Shown here: positions 1 through 9,869 of the stretch, piece by piece
How the letters are laid out: every line of letters starts with the position of its first letter
How positions within the stretch are numbered: position 1 is the stretch's first letter
Origin: Clostridia bacterium
GTDB taxonomy: Bacteria; Bacillota; Clostridia; RUG12999
Assembly (NCBI GenBank): GCA_017396395.1
Contig: JAFQMF010000014.1
Coordinates: 1,884-65,883 of the forward strand
Direction of reading: 5' to 3'
DNA: 64,000 nucleotides
Translations under genes and position numbers: made by a program
The notes under the pieces: model-generated
The model's database searches: none
What the model was told of the DNA's origin: nothing
The model's input: the letters and a program-made list of their open reading frames with translations, nothing else

Positions 1-162
1 CTTGTATCTTCACTTGGTAAGTTCTATGGTTTAGTAACAGGCATTAACGATTTAGATGCAATAATTATTGGTAAAGCTTTCGTTGTTATTAACGGACAGA
101 CACATTATGGAGCTCTTAAGTCAGTAGCTGTTGATACAGCTAAATGGCTTGGTACAAAATAA
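1..162 (+). CDS. 3' end of a gene truncated by the window edge, possibly a surface/secreted protein
   Basis: Frame 1 is open from base 1 to TAA at 160-162: LVSSLGKFYGLVTGINDLDAIIIGKAFVVINGQTHYGALKSVAVDTAKWLGTK. Codon usage resembles the well-expressed genes. The product cannot be identified from this fragment. Confidence 0.6.
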   Translation, partial: LVSSLGKFYGLVTGINDLDAIIIGKAFVVINGQTHYGALKSVAVDTAKWLGTK

Positions 163-197: not shown

Positions 198-350
198 ATG
201 AAAAAAGTATTTCAGGCACCTGTAGCACAGGTGGTAAAATTCAATGCTCCTGACGTAATTTGCACAAGTACTCCTGTTGAGCCTACTGTTCTTGCTAACA
301 ATGGCGGAAACAATATAGGAACTCAAGATTACGCAGATTTACTTGGCTAA
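198..350 (+). CDS. 50-aa putative RiPP precursor peptide with a lasso-type leader
   Basis: Strong RBS AAAGGAG at 181-187, ATG at 198, TAA at 348-350. Translation: MKKVFQAPVAQVVKFNAPDVICTSTPVEPTVLANNGGNNIGTQDYADLLG. The FxxP motif resembles the YxxP RRE-binding motif of lasso leaders. It lies upstream of PqqD, kinase and peptidase genes and is below the ORF-track length cutoff. Confidence 0.8.
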   Translation: MKKVFQAPVAQVVKFNAPDVICTSTPVEPTVLANNGGNNIGTQDYADLLG

Positions 351-385
351 TTTTTAGGATTATTGAGTAAATGACCTTATGCAAA

Positions 386-534
386 CATAACCACCCGCCA
401 GGCGGGTGGTTATGATTGTCTAAAGGCTTCTCTGCAGGGAGTGAAGCCTTTAAAAAAGGTATATCAAAAACTAATAAACCCCACTAGAAGGGAAGGGGCT
501 TAATCCTTTCCCTAACCTTTGGGGAAAGGATTAA
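386..534. repeat. Cluster of inverted repeats downstream of the precursor gene
   Basis: CATAACCACCCGCC-a-GGCGGGTGGTTATG (386-414, perfect 14-bp arms); TAAAGGCTTC..GAAGCCTTTA (421-452); TTAATCCTTTCCC..GGGAAAGGATTAA (500-534). Confidence 0.8.
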
Positions 535-567
535 AAACTACATGACAGATAAAATGGAGGTATATCC

Positions 568-1008
568 ATGAAAAAAATTATAGTTTTATTAATGATTTTT
601 ATAATGGCAGTATCCATTACTGCTTTTGCAACAGAAAATATCAGCGTTTATATAGGCAACAAAAAACTTGAGTTTGATGTACAGCCTCAGTTAATTAATG
701 ACAGAACTATGGTACCTATGCGTAAAATTTTTGAAAGCTTAGGTGCTGAGGTAACATGGGTTGGAGAGGCAGAAACTATTGTAGCAACTCGTGATTCACA
801 GATTATAGTTATGGAAATAGGAAAATTAAGCTTTACCGTTACAGACGTAAAAACTGAAGTAACAAAAGAAGTTATTCTTGATGTTCCCCCTCAGTTAGTA
901 GAGAGCAGAACTCTTGTTCCTGTTCGTGCCATTTCAGAAACCTTTGGTTATACTGTAAACTGGGATGATGCTACCACAACCGTAACTATTTTAAGACCTG
1001 CGGCTTAA
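568..1008 (+). CDS. Secreted copper-amine-oxidase-N-terminal (stalk) domain protein
   Basis: Signal peptide MKKIIVLLMIFIMAVSITAFA; two repeats of the P.l...RTxVPxRxIxExxG.xVxW motif typical of Cu_amine_oxidN1. Confidence 0.85.
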   Translation: MKKIIVLLMIFIMAVSITAFATENISVYIGNKKLEFDVQPQLINDRTMVPMRKIFESLGAEVTWVGEAETIVATRDSQIIVMEIGKLSFTVTDVKTEVTKEVILDVPPQLVESRTLVPVRAISETFGYTVNWDDATTTVTILRPAA

Positions 1009-1009
1009 T

Positions 1010-1705
1010 ATGTTTTATATAAAATTAGCAGACTTAAAAATTAAAATTGAAAATAAATATGAATATATTTCAGATATGTGCAAGGATTATTTAACAGACG
1101 GGGGAAATGAAAATTTCTCCCTTTCTGTCACACAGGAGGAGATACTCCGAGAACAGGCAGGACAGGAAGGATTTCCTTTAGGGTATTTAGAAAGCCTTGC
1201 AATTTACCGCAAAATAGCTGAAATGCTTCCTGCATACGGAGGTTTTTTAATGCATGGTGCGGTAATTACCTATGAGGATACGGGGATAGCTTTTCTTGCA
1301 CGCTCAGGCGTAGGAAAGACTACCCATATTGTAAATTGGAAAAAACTATTTGGTGATAAAGTAAAACCTGTTAACGGGGACAAGCCTTTGGTACGGCTTA
1401 TTGATAACAACGTATTTGTTTATGGTACGCCCTGGGCAGGAAAAGAAAATGTTCATCGAAACACACGGGCAATACTGAAAAAGATTTGCTTTATTGAAAG
1501 AGATGTTAACAGTAGTGTAACAGAAATCTCTAAAAAAGAGGCATTTGAAAGATTTTTGCCTCAGGTATATCTTGATAAAAACTATACCGCATTTGGAGTT
1601 ATTGATGAATGTTTTAAAAAGTGTGAATTTTATTTAATTAAATGTAATAGGGATATTTCGTCAGCACAAACTGCATTTGACGGAATAATGACAAAGGGGT
1701 TATAA
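1010..1705 (+). CDS. HPr-kinase-like P-loop protein (PadeK/ScmC-like putative peptide kinase)
   Basis: LMHGA, Walker A ARSGVGKTT, NGDKP and YGTPWAGKE motifs; adjacent to a PqqD gene. Confidence 0.75.
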   Translation: MFYIKLADLKIKIENKYEYISDMCKDYLTDGGNENFSLSVTQEEILREQAGQEGFPLGYLESLAIYRKIAEMLPAYGGFLMHGAVITYEDTGIAFLARSGVGKTTHIVNWKKLFGDKVKPVNGDKPLVRLIDNNVFVYGTPWAGKENVHRNTRAILKKICFIERDVNSSVTEISKKEAFERFLPQVYLDKNYTAFGVIDECFKKCEFYLIKCNRDISSAQTAFDGIMTKGL

Positions 1706-1706
1706 A

Positions 1707-1973
1707 ATGAGAGTAAAAGAAGGGTTTGTTCTTCATACGGTTTGTGATGAAAATCTTGTTGTTCCAATCGGTAAGGCAACAGAGGAATTTCACGGAATGA
1801 TAAGGCTTAACGATACAGGTGCCTTTCTTTGGAAGCTTATGGACTCTGAGTTTTCTAAAGAAACTTTAGTTACGGCACTTCTTTCTGAATATGATGTGGA
1901 GCAGAAGGAAGCACAGGATACTGTAGAGGCATTTTTGAACAATTTAATAGAAAACGGAATTATACAAAAGTGA
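1707..1973 (+). CDS. PqqD-family protein / stand-alone RiPP recognition element (B1-like)
   Basis: 88 aa with the pattern LNDTGAFLW...LLSEYDVE..A...V..FL..L.ENGII. Confidence 0.9.
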   Translation: MRVKEGFVLHTVCDENLVVPIGKATEEFHGMIRLNDTGAFLWKLMDSEFSKETLVTALLSEYDVEQKEAQDTVEAFLNNLIENGIIQK

Positions 1974-2398
1974 AGGAAACAAGTATTAAGCAGGAACTAA
2001 AAGAGGGTAAAACCGTAATTTATTATACTATGGGTATTAGTATGGAGCCTCTATTAAAGGCAAGAAGAACTCATGTAGTTCTTACACCTGTGTCAAAACC
2101 CCAAAAGTACGATATCCTTCTTTATGAAAGACAAGACGGAAAATATGTTCTTCACAGACTTTTGAATATTAAAAATGACTTTTTTTATATTCGCGGAGAC
2201 AATACCTTTTACTTGGAAAAAATTCACCCAAGTCAGATTATAGGTAAAGTATCCAGAGTCTATCGAAATGGAAGATACATAGATGTAGAAAAAAGCTTTA
2301 TTTACAAGGTATATGTTTTGGTAAACATATGGAGTTATCCTTTAAGATTTTTCCGTTACAAGCTTAAAAAACTTCGTGCAAGAAAGCAACGGGGGTAA
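1970..2398 (+). CDS. S24/S26-family (signal-peptidase-like) peptidase
   Basis: GISMEP (catalytic Ser box), DILLY, VLHRL (His), RGDN and IIGKV motifs; the GTG start overlaps the PqqD stop (GTGA). Confidence 0.8.
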   Translation: MKETSIKQELKEGKTVIYYTMGISMEPLLKARRTHVVLTPVSKPQKYDILLYERQDGKYVLHRLLNIKNDFFYIRGDNTFYLEKIHPSQIIGKVSRVYRNGRYIDVEKSFIYKVYVLVNIWSYPLRFFRYKLKKLRARKQRG

Positions 2399-2399
2399 A

Positions 2400-3551
2400 A
2401 TGCTTATGAATAAAAAAATATTAAATACAACAAGTGATTTGTTATATTTGGTAAAGTGCGTTTTAAATGGTAATAAGGCTGACAAAAACCTTATCAATAC
2501 CGAACTAAAAAATATATATTTAATTGCAAAAGCTCACAATCTTTCTGCAATAGTTGCCTATGCTTTTTCAGATATGGATACTCAAGACTTTGCACCTGAA
2601 GAGCAAAAGGTAATTTCAGCCTTTATGGATGAAAAAAATAAGGCTAAGAGGAATATGGTGTTATTTGAGCTTGAGCGTAATGCCCTGACAGACTTTTTTG
2701 AGGAGCAGGGCATTTTGTATATGCTGATGAAGGGTGCGCTGATAAGCAAGCTGTACCCTAAAGCTTTTATGCGTCAGATGGTGGATAACGACATCTGGTT
2801 TGATATAGCCTATGGGGAAAAAGTCATAGAGTGGTTTAAAAATAGGGAATATAATTGTAAAGTGGAAGACACAACTATTCATTATACATTTACTAAAGCA
2901 CCTGTGCTGAATTTTGAACTGCATTATGCTCCTTTATTTGCTAAATTCTGGAACAACACTTTTCATGAGTACTATAAAGAAAAATTTGAAAACCTTATAG
3001 CTAATCATAAAGAAGGTTGTGTCCTTAAATTTTCAGATGAAGATTTTTTTGTTTATATTTTTGCACATGCATATAAGCACTACAGCAACAGAGGTACAGG
3101 ACTTCGCACCCTTGTGGATATTTACCTTTTAAACAAAGAATATTCTAAAAAAATTAATATGGAATATGTAAATCAGCAATTTGAAATTCTTGGTATAACG
3201 GAGTTTGCAAATGATATTATAAACCTTACGCATACTATCTTTCAAGGAAATGGAAATTTAAATAATAAACAAAAAAATATCCTTTCATTTGTTTCAGTAA
3301 GCAATGCTTACGGAAACAGCTACTCCATGGAATTAAACAAAATTAAGAAAGTAACAAACAGTTCAGCTAAAATTAATATATTTGTTAAGATTAAATATAT
3401 TTTAAAGCGAATTTTCCCAAGTGTTAAAAATTTAGATATAAAATATAAAAATGAGAAAAAATATAAAATTCCCATAATTTACATATGCAGATTTGTACGG
3501 GGATTTGGACGTGGGCTGAAAGAGTTAAAATCAATTATTAAAATAAAGTAA
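2400..3551 (+). CDS. Nucleotidyltransferase-family protein (NTP_transf_5-like), paralog 1
   Basis: MKG..I..LYP...MRQMVDNDIWF, NFELH and HAYKHY...GTGLRTLVDIY motifs. Start placed at ATG 2400 (or 2406) after GGGGG, not at the GTG at 2376. Confidence 0.8.
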   Translation: MLMNKKILNTTSDLLYLVKCVLNGNKADKNLINTELKNIYLIAKAHNLSAIVAYAFSDMDTQDFAPEEQKVISAFMDEKNKAKRNMVLFELERNALTDFFEEQGILYMLMKGALISKLYPKAFMRQMVDNDIWFDIAYGEKVIEWFKNREYNCKVEDTTIHYTFTKAPVLNFELHYAPLFAKFWNNTFHEYYKEKFENLIANHKEGCVLKFSDEDFFVYIFAHAYKHYSNRGTGLRTLVDIYLLNKEYSKKINMEYVNQQFEILGITEFANDIINLTHTIFQGNGNLNNKQKNILSFVSVSNAYGNSYSMELNKIKKVTNSSAKINIFVKIKYILKRIFPSVKNLDIKYKNEKKYKIPIIYICRFVRGFGRGLKELKSIIKIK

Positions 3552-3567
3552 GGGTTATGCAATAATT

Positions 3568-4707
3568 ATGACGGAACAATTATTTGTTGTTATGCAAGAT
3601 ATAGTTTATCTTATAGATTGCGTTTCAATGGAAAAGAAAGCTGATATTTCTCGGCTTAAATGCCAACTTAATACTATTTATAATTTTGCTAAACTAAACA
3701 GCTTATCGGCACTGATAGCCTATGCTTTTGAGGATGCTTTAAAATATTCTGACAGGGACAAGTCTGCTATTGTAGCATTTGAAGAAGAAAAAAACATAGC
3801 TATGCGTAATATGGTGCTCTTTGAACTGGAAAGAAATTGTCTTGTTGATTTTTTAAAGAAAAACGACATATTTCATATGATACTTAAAGGGGTACATATA
3901 AGCGATTTATATCCAAAACCTTTTATGCGTCAGGTGGCAGACAATGATATCTGGTTTGACAAGTCATATGAAAATCAGGTTGTCAGCTGGTTTAAGGACA
4001 GGGGATATACTTGTAAAATGAACGCTCCCGTTCATTATGAATTCACAAAAGAACCAGTGCTTAACTTTGAAATGCATCACACCTCTCTTTTTTCAAAAAG
4101 CGGATATGATGTTTTCTATGAATATTATAACGAAAAGCTTCAAAGCCTTGTTTTAAACAGCAAAGACTTTCAACTGAATTTTTCTGATGAAGATTTTTAT
4201 GTGTATATAATTTGTCACAGTTATAAGCATTATACTGAGGCAGGGACAGGCTTTCGAACATTAGTTGATTTGTTTTTCTTAAATAAAAAACTTTCAGAAA
4301 AGCTTAATCGTGATTATATAGACAGTCAGCTTAAAAAGCTGGGCATTTACGATTTCGAACAAAGCTTGCAGGAAATTTGCAAAGCGGTTTTCTTAAAGAA
4401 AAGCTTAGATGAAAAAAATAAAAAAATGCTTTTGTACATATTAAACGCAGGAACTTATGGAGATAGAGTTACCAATATGTCCAACAAAATAAAAAGGGTA
4501 ACGGGGGGAAAGGTTAATGCCTTTACAAAGGCTAAATATATTCTTTCAAGAGTGTTTCCAAAGCCTGAAATAATTAAGGAAAGATATGGTAAAATAGGTA
4601 TAGTGTTATTACCTGTATTTTACTTAATTCGTATTTTGCAGTGCATTTTTAAGGGATTTTCAAAAGGGTTAAATGAAATCAGGTGGATTTTAAAGGCAAA
4701 ACAATAG
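3568..4707 (+). CDS. Nucleotidyltransferase-family protein (NTP_transf_5-like), paralog 2
   Basis: LKG..I..LYP...MRQVADNDIWF, NFEMH and HSYKHY...GTGFRTLVDLF motifs; colinear with the upstream paralog. Confidence 0.8.
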   Translation: MTEQLFVVMQDIVYLIDCVSMEKKADISRLKCQLNTIYNFAKLNSLSALIAYAFEDALKYSDRDKSAIVAFEEEKNIAMRNMVLFELERNCLVDFLKKNDIFHMILKGVHISDLYPKPFMRQVADNDIWFDKSYENQVVSWFKDRGYTCKMNAPVHYEFTKEPVLNFEMHHTSLFSKSGYDVFYEYYNEKLQSLVLNSKDFQLNFSDEDFYVYIICHSYKHYTEAGTGFRTLVDLFFLNKKLSEKLNRDYIDSQLKKLGIYDFEQSLQEICKAVFLKKSLDEKNKKMLLYILNAGTYGDRVTNMSNKIKRVTGGKVNAFTKAKYILSRVFPKPEIIKERYGKIGIVLLPVFYLIRILQCIFKGFSKGLNEIRWILKAKQ

Positions 4708-4716
4708 GAGTTTGGT

Positions 4717-6402
4717 ATGAAAAATTCTACAGTAAAAAGACTTTCAAAGGTTATTGGAAAATACAAGTTTAATATTTTAGTTCTTAGTATTATACAGCTT
4801 ATCAGCGGTGTAATTACTGTATATTTTGCACTAGCTATGAAGCAGACAGTGGATTTTGCAGTGAGCAAAAGTGCTGAGGGATTTAAAATTTCCTTTATAT
4901 CCCTGATTTCTCTTGTTATATTTCAAATTTTATTGCATGTGTTTGCAAGATATTTTTACGAGCTTACCCTTGCAAATGTTGAAAACAGGTTTCAGTCAAG
5001 ACTATTTGAAACACTTTTAAACAAGGATTTTTCTGCTGTTACCGCTTTCCACTCAGGAGAATGGATGAACAGACTTACTTCAGATGTTTCAATTGTAACA
5101 TCAAGCGTTGTTAATATTATACCCTCTGCAGTAGGTATGATTGTGCGTCTTACAGGTGCACTTATAGTTATTGTGGCACTGGAGCCTAAATTTTTGTTAT
5201 TTTTGTTGCCTTGCGGATTAGGCGTAGCATTATTCAGCTTTTTATTACGAAAAAAAATGAAGAAAATGCATAAAAATGTTCGCGAAGCAGACGGAAGGCT
5301 CAGAGGATATTTACAGGAACAGTTAACAAGCGGTGTACTTATAAGATGTTTTGGTGCTCAGAAAGACACCCTTTCTAAAGCAAAGGGTTATATGGGAGAA
5401 TATAAAAGAGAGAGAATTAAAAAAAGCAATTTTTCAAACGCTGCAAATGTTCTTCTTTCTGTTGGTGTAAACGCACTTTATTTAATGGGACTGGGTTTTT
5501 CCTGCGTGCGTCTTTTAGCAGGAAGTATTACATATGGTACACTGACAGCACTATTACAGCTGGTGGGTCAGCTTCAGTCTCCTGTAATAGGTCTTACGGG
5601 AATTATACCAAGATTTTACAGTATGATTGCAAGTGCAGAGCGTCTTAATGAGGCAGAGGATTTTCCAGAGGATATTTCAGAAACTTTAATGGAATATGCT
5701 CCTGTAATGGAGTATTTTAATAAGGATTTTTTACAGATACAGTTTAATAATGTAAGCTTTGCATATCCGGGTTCTGAGGAAGATGAGGTAACCCATAATG
5801 CTAACTTAACCATAAATAAAGGGGATTGTGTTGCTTTAGTAGGTTATTCAGGCAGCGGAAAATCCACTTTAATCAAGCTGTTGTTATCCTTGTATTCGCC
5901 AACTAAAGGTGAGATTGTTTTAAAAGATAATAAAGGGGAAAGTATTCCTCTTACAGGAGCTTGGAGAAGGCTTTTTGCCTATGTTCCGCAGGATAACAGG
6001 CTTACCAGTGGGTCAATACGTGATGCCGTAGCTTTTTCAAGACCAAATGAAAGAGATAATGACAGCAAAATAATAGAGGCATTAAAGGTAGCATCTGCAG
6101 ATGAGTTTGTATTAAGCTTGCCAAAGGGAATAGATAGTATGCTAAGTGAGTGCGGTGGCGGAATATCCGAAGGGCAGATGCAGAGAATTGCAGTTGCAAG
6201 GGCTGTTTTTTCTGAAAGTCCCATACTTCTTCTTGACGAGGCGACCAGTGCACTTGACGGAAAGACAGAAAGCAGGCTTTTAGAAAATATAAAAAATATG
6301 ACAGATAAAACGGTGCTTTTAATTGCTCACAGGCCCGCAGCACTGGAAATCTGCAATAAGATATATGATGTAAGTGATAATGGAATAAATCAAATTAAGT
6401 AA
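4717..6402 (+). CDS. ABC exporter with fused permease and ATPase domains
   Basis: N-terminal TM helices, Walker A GYSGSGKST, signature variant ISEGQ, Walker B ILLLDE, H-loop IAHR; no C39 peptidase domain. Confidence 0.9.
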   Translation: MKNSTVKRLSKVIGKYKFNILVLSIIQLISGVITVYFALAMKQTVDFAVSKSAEGFKISFISLISLVIFQILLHVFARYFYELTLANVENRFQSRLFETLLNKDFSAVTAFHSGEWMNRLTSDVSIVTSSVVNIIPSAVGMIVRLTGALIVIVALEPKFLLFLLPCGLGVALFSFLLRKKMKKMHKNVREADGRLRGYLQEQLTSGVLIRCFGAQKDTLSKAKGYMGEYKRERIKKSNFSNAANVLLSVGVNALYLMGLGFSCVRLLAGSITYGTLTALLQLVGQLQSPVIGLTGIIPRFYSMIASAERLNEAEDFPEDISETLMEYAPVMEYFNKDFLQIQFNNVSFAYPGSEEDEVTHNANLTINKGDCVALVGYSGSGKSTLIKLLLSLYSPTKGEIVLKDNKGESIPLTGAWRRLFAYVPQDNRLTSGSIRDAVAFSRPNERDNDSKIIEALKVASADEFVLSLPKGIDSMLSECGGGISEGQMQRIAVARAVFSESPILLLDEATSALDGKTESRLLENIKNMTDKTVLLIAHRPAALEICNKIYDVSDNGINQIK

Positions 6403-6544: not shown

Positions 6545-7126
6545 TTATTTCTTTTTATGTTTATTTTTTTTCTTTACTGAAAATCCAAAATCTCCCAGAT
6601 ACTTACCAAGTGTATAATAACTGCCGTGAGCATAAGCAAGAAGATCTGCTTTCCAAAGACAGATTTTTCCGTTTTTATCAATAAGATTGCTATCCACATT
6701 TACAGCAAGAATTTCTGCCATAAACACATTATGAGTACCAAGAGGAGTTTCGTTTATTACCTTGCACTCGATATTTACAGGACACTGAGAAATTAAAGGT
6801 GCAGATACACGGGTAGCATTTAAGGCAGTGAGCTTAAATTCAGCAAATTTATCAATATCTCTGCCACTTTTAACTCCGCAAATATCACAAACTTTAACAA
6901 GTGATGCTGGCACTAAATTTATAACAAACTGCCCTGTGCGTCTTATAATTTCATATGAATGTCTTGAGGGACGCACAGATATATATGTAATTGGCGGGTC
7001 TGTACACATAGTTCCTGTCCAGGCAACAGTAAAAATATTTTGCTGATTTTCGTCACCGCAGGAAACAAGTGTAGGTGGTACAGGGGAGAGCATAGCTCCG
7101 CCTTTGAATGTTGTTTTATTCATCAT
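6545..7126 (-). CDS. Flavin reductase-like (DIM6/NTAB) protein
   Basis: PVPPTLVSCG, TVAWTG, ISVRPSRHSY, CGVKSGRD and LGTHNVF motifs. Confidence 0.85.
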   Translation of the reverse strand: MMNKTTFKGGAMLSPVPPTLVSCGDENQQNIFTVAWTGTMCTDPPITYISVRPSRHSYEIIRRTGQFVINLVPASLVKVCDICGVKSGRDIDKFAEFKLTALNATRVSAPLISQCPVNIECKVINETPLGTHNVFMAEILAVNVDSNLIDKNGKICLWKADLLAYAHGSYYTLGKYLGDFGFSVKKKNKHKKK

Positions 7127-7137
7127 AGAAACCTACT

Positions 7138-7806
7138 TTATACATTTTCTATCTGCCAGTCAATTTTTTTCTCACCTATTGAGGAAAGTATGGCATTGGT
7201 TTTGGAAAAGTGCTTGCAACCAAAAAAACCGCCATAGGCAGAAAGAGGACTTGGATGTACTGTAGTAAGTACATAGTGATGGGGATTTGTAATATACTTT
7301 AGCTTTTCCTTTGCATTTCCACCCCAAAGAAGGAAGATTACAGGAGTTTTTCTTTCGTTAAGTGCTTTTATTACACTATCGGTAAAGGTTGTCCATCCAG
7401 TTTTTTTATGGGAATTTGCTTTTCCTTCCTCTACAGTAAGCACAGTATTAAGGAGCAATACTCCTTGCTTTGCCCACTTTTCCAAATATCCGTTATCAGG
7501 AATATAACAGCCAAGGTCGCTGTTTAATTCTTTGTACATATTACAAAGACTGGGCGGAATAGTAATACCTTTATTTACTGAAAAAGCAAGTCCGTGTGCC
7601 TGCCCCTGCTCGTGGTATGGGTCCTGACCTAAAATTACTACTTTAACATCATCATAATCAGTAAACTTAAAAGCATTAAATATACAGTCTTTTGGAGGAA
7701 ATATAGTTTTGTTTGCATATTCCTCATTTACAAAAGCCATAAGCTTTATAAAATAGTCTTTTTCCGTTTCTTGCTTTAAAACCTTATCCCATTTTGTATT
7801 AAACAT
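7138..7806 (-). CDS. ung: Uracil-DNA glycosylase, family 1
   Basis: GQDPYH, LLLNTVLTV and HPSPLS catalytic motifs. Confidence 0.97.
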   Translation of the reverse strand: MFNTKWDKVLKQETEKDYFIKLMAFVNEEYANKTIFPPKDCIFNAFKFTDYDDVKVVILGQDPYHEQGQAHGLAFSVNKGITIPPSLCNMYKELNSDLGCYIPDNGYLEKWAKQGVLLLNTVLTVEEGKANSHKKTGWTTFTDSVIKALNERKTPVIFLLWGGNAKEKLKYITNPHHYVLTTVHPSPLSAYGGFFGCKHFSKTNAILSSIGEKKIDWQIENV

Positions 7807-7814
7807 AATAACCT

Positions 7815-8672
7815 CTATTTTTTGTAGAAAATAACTGCAAATGCACCATCGCCGGTATTAATTCCGATTGTAGGACCAATGTAGGAAATGCCTGTTACTG
7901 TTATTCCTAAATTTTCTTCCATAGCATTTTTGAATTCTTCTGCTTTTTCAGGAATATCAGCGTGAACAATCCATATTTCAGAGGCATTTTCAATGCCTTC
8001 CTCTTTTGCAAGCTGAAGAAGCTTTGGAATAACCTTCTTTTTTCCTCGCACCTTTTCTTTTGACTCTACAAGTCCATCCTCAATAGAAAGTATAGGCTTA
8101 ATATCAAGAATGTCTGCAATAGTAGCAACAGAAGGTTTAATTCTTCCGCCTGCTTTCAAATATTTAAGATTATCAACCGCAAAAAGAGCAACCTGACGTT
8201 GAAGCATAGGATAAATTTTATCTAAAATCTGGGATTTATCAGCACCACTTTGTGCCATTTCTGCTGCAACTTCCGCAACTCGTCCATACATAAGGCTATA
8301 TGACATTGTGTCAATAACTTCCACATCCAGTTTTATTCCATCTTCTTCCAACATCTTGCAGGCAAGGTTTGCATTATTATATGTGCCGCTTCCTGCTTTA
8401 GATATAGTAAAGCATAAAACGGTGTCATAGCCTTCCTCAGCCGCCTCTTTATACGCATCATAAAAAGTGGTGGGAGAAATCTGTGAAGTGGTAGGAAGCT
8501 CAGACATTTCTTTCAGCTTTTTGTAAAATTCCTGATATTTAATATCATAATAGTCTAAAACAAGCTCTTCCCCAAACATAATATTTATGGGAAGTACTTT
8601 AATTCCGTATTTTTCAATAGCCTGGTAGCGTAAATCTCCCGCAGAGTCGCACATAATTTTAATTTTTGACAT
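7815..8672 (-). CDS. DegV-family fatty-acid-binding protein
   Basis: DSAGDL, PTTSQ, SGTYN, LKYLKAGGRI and IKPIL motifs. Confidence 0.92.
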   Translation of the reverse strand: MSKIKIMCDSAGDLRYQAIEKYGIKVLPINIMFGEELVLDYYDIKYQEFYKKLKEMSELPTTSQISPTTFYDAYKEAAEEGYDTVLCFTISKAGSGTYNNANLACKMLEEDGIKLDVEVIDTMSYSLMYGRVAEVAAEMAQSGADKSQILDKIYPMLQRQVALFAVDNLKYLKAGGRIKPSVATIADILDIKPILSIEDGLVESKEKVRGKKKVIPKLLQLAKEEGIENASEIWIVHADIPEKAEEFKNAMEENLGITVTGISYIGPTIGINTGDGAFAVIFYKK

Positions 8673-8693
8673 AACAATTCTCCTTACTGTATG

Positions 8694-9869
8694 TTATATT
8701 GATAACCATGCCTTAAGTACGTGATAAAAGGCTTGGAAAATATTCATTTTTTTTACTTCAACAGAGGTTTTTGCCTGTGTGGTAGAAACAAGCACATTAT
8801 CCACATATATATTAACTTTGCCTACCACACTGCCCTTTGGAACAGGGGCAACCAAGCTGTTATCAATTTCATATTCTGCCCTTACTAAACTTTTCTTGGA
8901 AGAGGGTATAAAGGCAGTTATATCCTTGTCACAGAAAAGAGCAACCTTAGACTTGTTGCCTCTTTGAACGTTAACATAAATTGTATTTCCCTCAGTGTCT
9001 TTCAAAATACCTTTTTTCTGTATAATTTCAGGAGTGAATGAGGAATAAGTATATTCAAAAAGATATTTTGCCTCAGAAAATCTGGTAGGACTGTCAGGAG
9101 CACCTAAAATAACACAAATAAGTTTAACATTATCCTTTTGTGCAGTAGCGGTAAGACAATATCCTGCTCCGTCTGTTGTACCTGTTTTAAGTCCCGTTGC
9201 ATACTGGTAGTTGGAAAGCAAGTTGTTTGTGTTAATAAGGGGGAAAGTACCATCCCGAAGGGTATCCGAAACAGTTGCGGAGTGAGCCATAATTCTTGGA
9301 TGATTAAGCAAAACCTCACGGGAGATTTTTGCAATATCACGAGCGGTAGAATAATGACCTTCTGCATCAAGACCGGAAGCGGTAACATAGTGGGTATCCT
9401 TTAAACCAAGCTTCTGTGCTCTTTTGTTCATAAGCTGTACAAAGGCTTCTTCCGACCCTGCAATATGCTCGGCAAGGGCAACAGCTGCATCGTTTGCACT
9501 TGGTATAGAGATACTCTTTAAAATATCATCAAGTGTCATTTTTTCACCGTCGTCAAGATATACACGGCTGCCGGGAGTTTCCTTTGCTGTTGCTGTTCCG
9601 GTAACAATTTCCGTAAGCTTAAGCTTTCCCTCCTCCAAATACTCATCTGCAATTAAAAGCACCATAAGCTTTGTTATACTTGCCATTGGCATTTTCTCAT
9701 CAGGATTTTTAGCCATAATTACATATCCTGTGTCTGCATCCATCAAAAGAATGGATTTTGCATCAAATGCATCAGGGTCAAGGTTGCAAAATGGCGAAGT
9801 TTGAGCATTTACACAAACAGATGAAAAACATAATATTAAAATCAGAATAACGCTGAATATTTTCTTCAT
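8694..9869 (-). CDS. D-alanyl-D-alanine carboxypeptidase (peptidase S11, DacA/DacF-like)
   Basis: Signal peptide; SxxK (ASITK), SAN and KTG motifs; C-terminal PBP5 domain. Confidence 0.92.
   Translation of the reverse strand: MKKIFSVILILILCFSSVCVNAQTSPFCNLDPDAFDAKSILLMDADTGYVIMAKNPDEKMPMASITKLMVLLIADEYLEEGKLKLTEIVTGTATAKETPGSRVYLDDGEKMTLDDILKSISIPSANDAAVALAEHIAGSEEAFVQLMNKRAQKLGLKDTHYVTASGLDAEGHYSTARDIAKISREVLLNHPRIMAHSATVSDTLRDGTFPLINTNNLLSNYQYATGLKTGTTDGAGYCLTATAQKDNVKLICVILGAPDSPTRFSEAKYLFEYTYSSFTPEIIQKKGILKDTEGNTIYVNVQRGNKSKVALFCDKDITAFIPSSKKSLVRAEYEIDNSLVAPVPKGSVVGKVNIYVDNVLVSTTQAKTSVEVKKMNIFQAFYHVLKAWLSI

Follow-up and report, generated by a model that had tools for sequence, protein, structure and literature searches.

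In a window of 64,000 nucleotides from the genome of a Clostridia bacterium (GTDB lineage RUG12999; GenBank assembly GCA_017396395.1, contig JAFQMF010000014.1, positions 1,884 to 65,883 of the forward strand), positions 198 to 6402 hold a gene cassette that, judged from its sequence, is likely a Clostridial cluster for the biosynthesis of a linear polyphosphorylated peptide (LPP), a ribosomally synthesised and post-translationally modified peptide (RiPP). The LPP family was first described in 2026 as lppA-K-B-S-D-N of Paenibacillus alginolyticus DSM5050 and other Bacilli (Popov et al., Nat Commun 2026;17:6633; PMC13381572). Besides the precursor LppA, its core comprises the SipW-like SpI peptidase LppS, the discrete RiPP recognition element (RRE) LppB, the HprK-like kinase LppK, the uncharacterised NTP transferase LppN, and the MsbA-like pump LppD. 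According to the main text of that paper, the precursors have the leader consensus YxxPxVLxHQxIxFETxxS with the cut motif Fx[T/A], LppK adds up to four phosphates to core Ser3 in B. subtilis, and LppS (S29, H68, D93) cuts the cytoplasmic precursor after Thr-1 in dependence on LppB, by which both partners are brought together; the clusters belong to capsule loci in Bacilli and frequently have a paeninodin-type lasso cluster next to them, and LPP RREs occur in 80 of 9173 Bacilli genomes (PMC13381572). An earlier interpretation of the window made from the letters alone (the sequence-only reading) had taken the cassette for a cyclase-less, RRE-dependent RiPP pathway with a linear phosphorylated product, and this is now supported by the LPP gene set, the homology of the enzymes and the signature of the RRE. 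The same reading knew of no biochemical characterisation and considered the pathway possibly novel, which no longer holds, as the class is already described (PMC13381572), and the window therefore contains a Clostridial variant and not a new class.

The genome has a size of 1.28 Mb and is 92.6% complete, and the window begins 1883 nt into its contig C10. Eight open reading frames (ORFs), all on the plus strand and tightly packed, fill positions 198-6402 in the order A-[CuAO]-K-B-S-N-N-D: an LppA-like precursor of 50 residues (198..350), a secreted single-domain Cu_amine_oxidN1 protein (CuAO_N1) of 146 residues (568..1008), an LppK-like HprK-related P-loop kinase of 231 residues (1010..1705), an LppB-like discrete RRE of the PqqD family with 88 residues (1707..1973), an LppS-like soluble S26 peptidase of the ER/archaeal type with 142 residues (1970..2398), two LppN-like NTP_transf_5 nucleotidyltransferases (2400..3551 and 3568..4707), and an LppD-like ABC exporter of the MsbA type with 561 residues (4717..6402). 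As the genes beyond the cassette are on the opposite strand, its end is at 6402. Re-reading the sequence confirmed every ORF of this co-directional arrangement as it had been described, including the junctions 1008/1010 (TAA-T-ATG) and 1705/1707 (TAA-A-ATG) and the GTGA overlap at 1970, and revealed an additional one-nucleotide gap at 2398/2400 (TAA-A-ATG), which makes ATG 2400 a more likely start of the first nucleotidyltransferase than GTG 2376. All genes listed before are thus present, among them PqqD, the duplicated nucleotidyltransferase and the ABC exporter, which matched PF05402, PF14907 (twice) and PF00664 plus PF00005, and only the secreted CuAO_N1 gene had been left out of that list.

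For a comparison with Bacilli, 48 LPP loci of 8 kb were collected through the back-translated published leader logo, and all 48 matched stretches (48/48) came from Bacilli. Half of these loci (24/48) have the order precursor-kinase-PqqD-peptidase, mostly followed by the ABC exporter and the nucleotidyltransferase. Hidden Markov models (HMMs) built only from Clostridial proteins found the kinase in 36 of the 48 loci, PqqD in 39, the peptidase in 32, the ABC exporter in 34 and the nucleotidyltransferase in 30, with best E values of 1.5e-17, 9e-14, 2.3e-23, 6e-161 and 7e-20, respectively, and CuAO_N1 in none. Also in direct BLASTP comparisons the window proteins matched these loci, the RRE with 35% over 60 residues (E 1.4e-10), the peptidase with 33% over 110 residues (E 9e-9) and the exporter with 31% over 547 residues (E 3e-63). 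What sequence and homology show is the LPP gene set, the relationship of the K, B, S, N and D genes to Bacilli LPP genes, and the LPP-type signature of the RRE. The cassette shares with Bacilli LPP clusters the six core functions, the K-B-S order, homologous enzymes and the lack of a cyclase, and more specifically an SpI-like peptidase next to an LppB-type RRE, an LppK that is recognisable at the family level, and both LppN and LppD; the N-terminal precursor consensus is what it lacks. The leader nevertheless has the form [Y/F]xxP and ends with hydrophobic-x-[T/A], the RRE is nearest to LppB and has the LPP-type Asn, and the peptidase is likewise soluble and SipW-like, with a conserved N-terminal segment and the residues Ser, His and Asp.

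On the other side, the cassette differs from the Bacilli clusters in several respects. The hosts are Clostridia, known from metagenome-assembled genomes of gut and rumen, and the leader is three residues longer from the Pro to the cut and has no VLxHQxIxFET block. Under the predicted cut the invariant Ser is at +1 and not at +3, and the cores are shorter and acidic. The nucleotidyltransferase is duplicated and placed ahead of the pump, a secreted CuAO_N1 gene is added, and the cassette lies behind a giant surface-protein gene instead of in a capsule locus, in a genome that has no lasso cluster. Neither Clostridia, Ruminococcus, Lachnospiraceae, gut, surface protein nor copper amine is mentioned in the main text of Popov et al., the supplements of which may list Clostridial members (PMC13381572), and literature searches found no report of Clostridial LPP-type loci or of a link to surface proteins.

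The RRE of the window matches PF05402 with E 8.8e-18, and among solved structures it is LppB itself that matches best (9x8z_B, E 3.8e-6), followed by PbaB1 (9x90_B, E 4.5e-4) and TfuB1 (E 8e-4). The phmmer alignment to 9x8z_B, a chain whose numbering is that of the paper plus 18 (checked on ten named residues), places N35 of the window at N33 of LppB, and this Asn is invariant in the Clostridial RREs compared (38/38). In LppB, the exchange N33A nearly abolishes binding, and paeninodin RREs carry a Gly at this position (PMC13381572). Another LppB residue, D70, forms a hydrogen bond with the Tyr of the leader (PMC13381572), and the corresponding residue of the window is T72. Ten loci have both an RRE and a precursor in cis, and in these a leader Tyr is accompanied by an Asp at the D70 position in six of six cases, and the non-Tyr leaders (F, F, N, F) are accompanied by non-Asp residues (T, S, A, S) in four of four, the window being a case of Phe with T72. 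These loci are related, which is why the co-variation carries no formal probability, but it is the pattern expected if Clostridial RREs bind these leaders in the LppB mode, and it carries the published rule of recognition over to a second class. An assignment to the HPr-rel-A system does not fit, as the window PqqD scores 22 bits with TIGR04353 (PqqD_rel_X; cut-off 35) and the kinase has no NCBIfam match.

The precursor ORF begins 35 nt past the stop of the upstream giant-protein ORF and has a strong Shine-Dalgarno sequence, AAAGGAGA, 9 nt upstream. Its leader and core are predicted to meet before Ser24 (MKKVFQAPVAQVVKFNAPDVICT|S), which gives a leader of residues 1-23 with FxxP at residues 5-8 and the end ...DVICT. 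The peptide is a single copy in the genome (E 1.3e-14), contains no hydrophobic segment according to a hydropathy scan, and has no meaningful match in the PDB. As the sequence-only reading requires, comparable small ORFs lie beside some homologous cassettes: with the window peptide and look-alikes as seed, a profile matched 26 small ORFs, or 24 distinct precursors of one family once a duplicate locus was removed. These have the N-terminal block [Y/F]xxPxhxhhxhxxxD[IV]Ix[T/A]S in common, followed by a hypervariable tail. The motif opens with Y in 18, with F in 4, with N in 1 and with a gap in 1 of the 24 precursors, D19 is conserved in at least 90%, and Ser24 (window numbering) is the sole invariant column; the residue ahead of it is a T in 16 precursors, an A in 7 and an L in one. 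The cores have a median length of 28 residues and a net charge of -3 (n=23), compared to 46 residues and +2 in Bacilli (n=44), where Ser is found at +3 in 40 of 44 cores as opposed to the invariant Ser at +1 in the Clostridial type under the predicted cut. An HMM of the leader alone detected no further precursors among all ORFs of 92 loci.

The position of the transglutaminase-like B2 peptidase of lasso clusters is taken by a signal-peptidase-like enzyme, as had been noticed from the sequence, and several comparisons agree with this: TIGR02228 is matched with E 5e-6 and 26 bits (below the cut-off of 51.85), bacterial signal peptidase I 4me8 with E 1.3e-3, and the best PDB matches of the family profile are human SEC11A (E 1.6e-3) and SEC11C (E 2.3e-3); PF13471, the B2 family, is not matched in the genome. 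Residues G22, S24, M25, P27, D48, H62, R63 and D77 are invariant in 45 homologues, which display the motifs GxSMxP, HR[ILV] and GDN, and Ser24, His62 and Asp77, together with Glu83, are the candidate catalytic residues. With SipW and SEC11 (MEROPS S26B) the family shares alignable SMxP, HR[IV] and GDN motifs as well as the invariant Ser, His and Asp, but the window enzyme has only 142 residues, no transmembrane (TM) anchor (no TM-like segment, maximum KD19 0.97) and a coupling to an RRE, and it would presumably act on a cytoplasmic leader peptide and not on a Sec signal peptide. The SEC11/SipW-type matches and the lack of a TM segment together point to an ER/archaeal-type (SipW-like) fold in a soluble protein. 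The gene overlaps that of PqqD by GTGA, which means that it is translationally coupled to the RRE. A search for homologous proteins with the window peptidase returned the query only, and in a quick maximum-likelihood tree, computed without outgroup and with the window on a long branch, the peptidases of Clostridia and Bacilli are split by one branch with an SH-aLRT support of 100.

The similarity to SEC11 and to bacterial signal peptidase I would also fit a true SipW-type signal peptidase that serves the neighbouring secreted proteins, namely the giant protein and CuAO_N1, in a setting like that of tapA-sipW-tasA and with the small ORF not being its substrate, and the secreted CuAO_N1 inside the operon and the location of 12 of 20 small ORFs with their cassette behind a giant secreted-protein gene go along with this idea. 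Signal peptidases, however, work at the outer face of the membrane, and an enzyme without a TM-like segment and with 26 instead of 51.85 bits for TIGR02228 does not belong to the housekeeping SipW proteins. The GTGA coupling connects it with an RRE that co-varies with the leader of the small peptide, the kinase-RRE-peptidase trio is found also far from any giant-protein gene, and in the published system it is a cytoplasmic precursor that LppS cuts, in dependence on the RRE (PMC13381572). A signal peptidase function is thus very unlikely.

The lack of a lasso cyclase and of B2, which had been stated for the window, extends to the rest of the genome. PF13471 had no match in the whole genome (at 92.6% completeness), and PF00733, the cyclase family, had just two weak partial matches on contig C9, with scores of 31 and 24 bits, to ORFs that have 353 and 367 residues. 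The 1883 nt of the contig upstream of the window contain no lasso gene, only the 3' part of the giant surface-protein gene that runs off the contig end. With paeninodin-type lasso clusters the cassette shares a discrete PqqD RRE directed at a [Y/W]xxP leader, an HprK-like kinase for a Ser of the precursor, and NTP_transf_5 and ABC accessory genes, but it has neither an Asn-synthetase-like cyclase nor a transglutaminase-like B2, the leader would be removed by a serine peptidase, and the RRE has the Asn in place of the Gly. Kinase, PqqD, NTP_transf_5 and ABC exporter being typical paeninodin-type accessory genes, and the leader being lasso-like, the cassette could be imagined as a decayed lasso cluster that has lost cyclase and B2 and makes no product. 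This is extremely improbable: none of the ORFs is broken and their coupling is tight, the residues for catalysis and binding do not vary across 38-45 homologues, and the same cyclase-less set recurs widely. The five closest kinase-bearing genomes have no PF13471 either, and the sole strong PF00733 match among them (G011) is on a contig other than that of the cassette. Moreover, the Bacilli counterpart works without a cyclase (PMC13381572).

By analogy with LppAKBSDN of P. alginolyticus, the 50-residue precursor of this LPP-type cluster would be made in the cytoplasm, where the PqqD RRE would bind the leader segment F5-x-x-P8 as an added beta strand and the HprK-like kinase would phosphorylate the invariant Ser24 with one or more phosphates. 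The soluble SipW-like Ser/His peptidase, aided by the RRE, is then expected to cut after Thr23, I21-C22-T23 being a hydrophobic-x-[T/A] sequence, and this would release an acidic core of 27 residues that starts with phospho-Ser. The two NTP_transf_5 enzymes may add a further group, and the MsbA-like pump would export the product.

Several observations weigh against this assignment or its details, and one of them concerns the kinase. The genome has a bona fide HprK, which matches PF07475 with E 9.5e-73, and the window kinase itself has no Pfam or NCBIfam match of its own. At the family level, 8 of 12 members match PF07475 at E<=1 (best 2.7e-5), and hhalign aligns the family with the genuine HprK of the genome at 90% probability, but over only 29 columns around the Walker A P-loop. 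The BLASTP match of the window kinase to a Bacilli LPP locus is limited to 21% over 113 residues (E 5e-4), the family profile has no PDB match at E 0.01, and the window kinase gave nothing meaningful there. Invariant residues of the family are S99, G100, G102, K103, T105, H106, D124 and K125. The earlier call of an HPr-kinase-like enzyme stands for the family, through PF07475 in 8 of 12 members and the detection at the K position in 36 of 48 Bacilli loci, and only weakly for the window protein by itself, so that the label HprK-like is fair, but weak.

The other points on this side concern the precursor, the product and the distribution. The window leader lacks the published consensus YxxPxVLxHQxIxFETxxS and agrees with it solely in [Y/F]xxP and in the hydrophobic-x-[T/A] ahead of the cut, and also the looser published motif Px9Fx[T/A] is not found, the spacing here being Px12Ix[T/A]. 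When applied as a regular expression to Clostridial loci, the Bacilli logo detected nothing except one chance-like ORF of 37 residues on the opposite strand, 3.4 kb from a kinase gene, and among the 46 loci that carry a peptidase and have 1.5 kb or more of upstream sequence, 36 lack a precursor in cis by our leader model. Cleavage after Thr23 and Ser24 as the phospho-acceptor were deduced from conservation, and as an alternative a cut two residues earlier, after I21, would keep the Ser at +3 as in Bacilli. The pockets of signal-peptidase-type enzymes favour small residues at -1, for which reason this alternative with its Ile at -1 is the poorer fit. None of the four other genomes of the genus (0/4) carries the kinase, which speaks for an accessory and probably transferred cassette. 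Finally, also in the published system LppN had no activity, for which the authors proposed a missing partner or substrate, and the final LPP product was not identified (PMC13381572).

With regard to the end product, the two nucleotidyltransferases deserve attention. They match PF14907 with E 9.1e-34 (copy 1) and 2.6e-30 (copy 2), share 44% identity, are both full length and are the only PF14907 genes of the genome; copy 2 has a C-terminal hydrophobic segment (341-364), and copy 1 gave nothing meaningful in the PDB. NTP_transf_5 is a core LPP gene, and as it is duplicated here with both copies full length, the pathway could be LPP-like with a different chemistry, in which these enzymes turn the phospho-Ser into a nucleotidylated or sugar-phosphate-linked end product, possibly on a surface polymer. 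A related enzyme, PsmN, has been linked to the glycosylation of a phosphorylated lasso peptide (PMC7533575). However, the cassette contains no glycosyltransferase or sugar-nucleotide gene, and just 7 of the 32 Clostridial loci that have a peptidase and 5 kb or more of downstream sequence include a nucleotidyltransferase, which indicates that it is not obligatory for the Clostridial family. Such a chemistry is therefore possible but rather doubtful. The exporter of the LPP-type cassette has a fused membrane domain and nucleotide-binding domain and no C39 peptidase domain, and its best NCBIfam matches are MsbA-related and under the cut-offs.

CuAO_N1 matches PF07833 with E 4.2e-33 and has a hydrophobic, signal-peptide-like N-terminus (1-27). 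It also occurs at Clostridial loci homologous to this one, in a cluster of 10, and in 0 of 48 Bacilli LPP loci, and by its sequence and distribution it is an accessory gene outside the published LPP core. Between precursor and CuAO_N1, the intergenic region 351-567 on the plus strand folds with a minimum free energy of -79.8 kcal/mol (z -6.2), and none of 200 shuffled sequences (0/200) folds as well. It contains three strong stem-loops at about 385-414, 421-452 and 499-537, none with a clear T run, and a terminator-like site at 395-409 with a weak T run. The hairpins would act as a transcript-stabilising or attenuating element, and possibly they set the ratio of precursor to enzymes.

Similar gene sets are common in Clostridia, as had been supposed. 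A scan of species-representative genomes with a pattern from the kinase alignment gave at least 599 stretches; among the 599 matches listed, 573 were confirmed, and 80 were kept, all of them by record title from gut and rumen Clostridia except one from Bulleidia. These 80, together with 11 loci from relatives and the window, were annotated with the family HMMs built in this analysis, and L046 was dropped as a duplicate of L034 (L123 has no called kinase ORF). In the 77 loci with at least 1.5 kb downstream, the peptidase is found within three genes of the kinase in 44, PqqD in 33 and both in 28, and the 32 peptidase loci with at least 5 kb downstream include an ABC exporter in 12. The commonest layout is kinase-PqqD-peptidase-(ABC)-(NT), with NT for the nucleotidyltransferase, for example in Ruminococcus flavefaciens Y1 (L114). 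At E<=1e-12, the peptidase profile had a match in 113 of the 301 genomes drawn evenly from the class Clostridia, in 100 of the 268 that are of high quality and in 68 of the 177 genera. With 113/301 by the peptidase profile and 80/9173 by LPP RREs (PMC13381572), counts that were obtained by different methods, the Clostridial branch appears much commoner than that of Bacilli. What this analysis adds is its own leader type, the short acidic cores, the high prevalence in Clostridia, the co-variation of leader and RRE, and the link to giant surface proteins.

Not all loci are complete in themselves. Five genomes with an RRE-less precursor-kinase-peptidase locus all have a PqqD homologue elsewhere (E about 1e-30), beside a kinase paralogue of about 290 residues, and where the cassette lacks a neighbouring precursor, 4 of 5 genomes were found to have precursor-like ORFs elsewhere, with eight of them in R. 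flavefaciens Y1. Since precursor and RRE genes occur away from the cassettes, the system is modular and can work in trans. Three such second loci, L129 (G008:C7), L130 (G011:C21) and L131 (G018:C8), consist of the kinase paralogue of about 290 residues followed by PqqD, in G011 with an added peptidase, and no precursor was detected near them; they may supply the RRE in trans to the RRE-less loci.

The cassette directly follows the 3' end of a giant surface-protein gene (1..162 of the window, plus strand). The ORF (L008, 3..2045) runs off the contig end, and its product has more than 680 residues with InlB B-repeat domains (PF18998, E 1.1e-9; PF09479, E 7.3e-8). This is a recurring situation: 20 precursors have 700 nt or more of upstream sequence, and 12 of them begin -11 to +35 nt from where a co-directional ORF of at least 600 residues stops. 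These giant ORFs range from 642 to more than 2854 residues and have signal peptides where the N-terminus is present, and mixed adhesin-like domains. A C-terminal domain common to the giant proteins was considered and rejected, as there are at least two C-terminal similarity groups and the Pfam content is heterogeneous. Among the distant precursor-like ORFs in fetched stretches, several likewise come immediately after large secreted proteins, four of them in R. flavefaciens, and some are neighbours of a lipoprotein with about 160 residues.

The position behind a giant secreted-protein gene, together with the secreted CuAO_N1 in the operon, suggests a role of the peptide at the cell surface, and the link to giant proteins also keeps alive the suggestion of a peptide-primed surface modification that the sequence-only reading had made. 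One may go further and propose that the LPP-type peptides of gut Clostridia are dedicated partners of giant surface proteins, with the precursor translationally coupled to an adhesin-like gene, the exported phosphorylated acidic peptide, decorated further where nucleotidyltransferase genes are present, tethering, priming or regulating the giant protein, CuAO_N1 maybe acting as receptor, and the enzymes and RRE serving several modules in trans. This proposal is speculative and rather unlikely to be correct as a whole, but it is a testable hypothesis for a cell-surface role of LPPs in abundant gut and rumen bacteria, including the cultured R. flavefaciens with its K-B-S-D-N cassette.

Several locus types deviate from the layouts described so far. 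In R. flavefaciens Y1 (G061; L142-L145) and in G064 (L147), a module of a large secreted protein, a precursor-like ORF, the lipoprotein of about 160 residues and a second precursor-like ORF is repeated far from the cassette, and some of the cores are very short, with 7 residues after the Ser. In L039, L062 and L074 (also L092, L102 and L107), the same leader type is combined with Cys-rich cores beside a protein of about 450-460 residues that looks by eye like a radical SAM/SPASM maturase, and the same loci hold kinase and PqqD; leader and RRE may here be common to two chemistries. The RRE-less loci L033, L034, L036, L038, L043, L051 and L052 have a membrane protein of about 150 residues between precursor and kinase, and several add a Cys-rich protein of 60-88 residues; one of each of these extra proteins, taken from L033 and L036, had no Pfam match. 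In four Acutalibacteraceae (L060, L069, L071, L082), kinase-PqqD-peptidase-ABC is preceded, by eye, by an acyl-carrier-like protein, a dockerin-like secreted protein and a small lipoprotein that ends in a conserved GG[ST]DPYVED motif, and no leader-type precursor was found upstream.

A subgroup of the kinase (L057-L059, L078, L087, L090, L104) has no peptidase and stands beside a conserved gene pair, one of which looks by eye like a tRNA adenosine deaminase, so that this subgroup probably belongs to a different functional context. Also among the Bacilli loci there are six from Paenibacillus (L158, L166, L174, L182, L188, L192) in which the precursor with the LPP logo is followed by the nucleotidyltransferase, PqqD and other genes, and not by kinase-PqqD-peptidase. 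They contain ORFs of about 250-300 residues, in three loci an additional ORF of 593-633 residues, and short, Cys-containing cores, and possibly represent a different pathway that uses the same leader. In the window itself, the region downstream of the cassette (6545-9869, minus strand) contains four genes with a housekeeping look by eye, namely a flavin reductase-like protein, a uracil-DNA glycosylase, a DegV-like protein and a D-alanyl-D-alanine carboxypeptidase.

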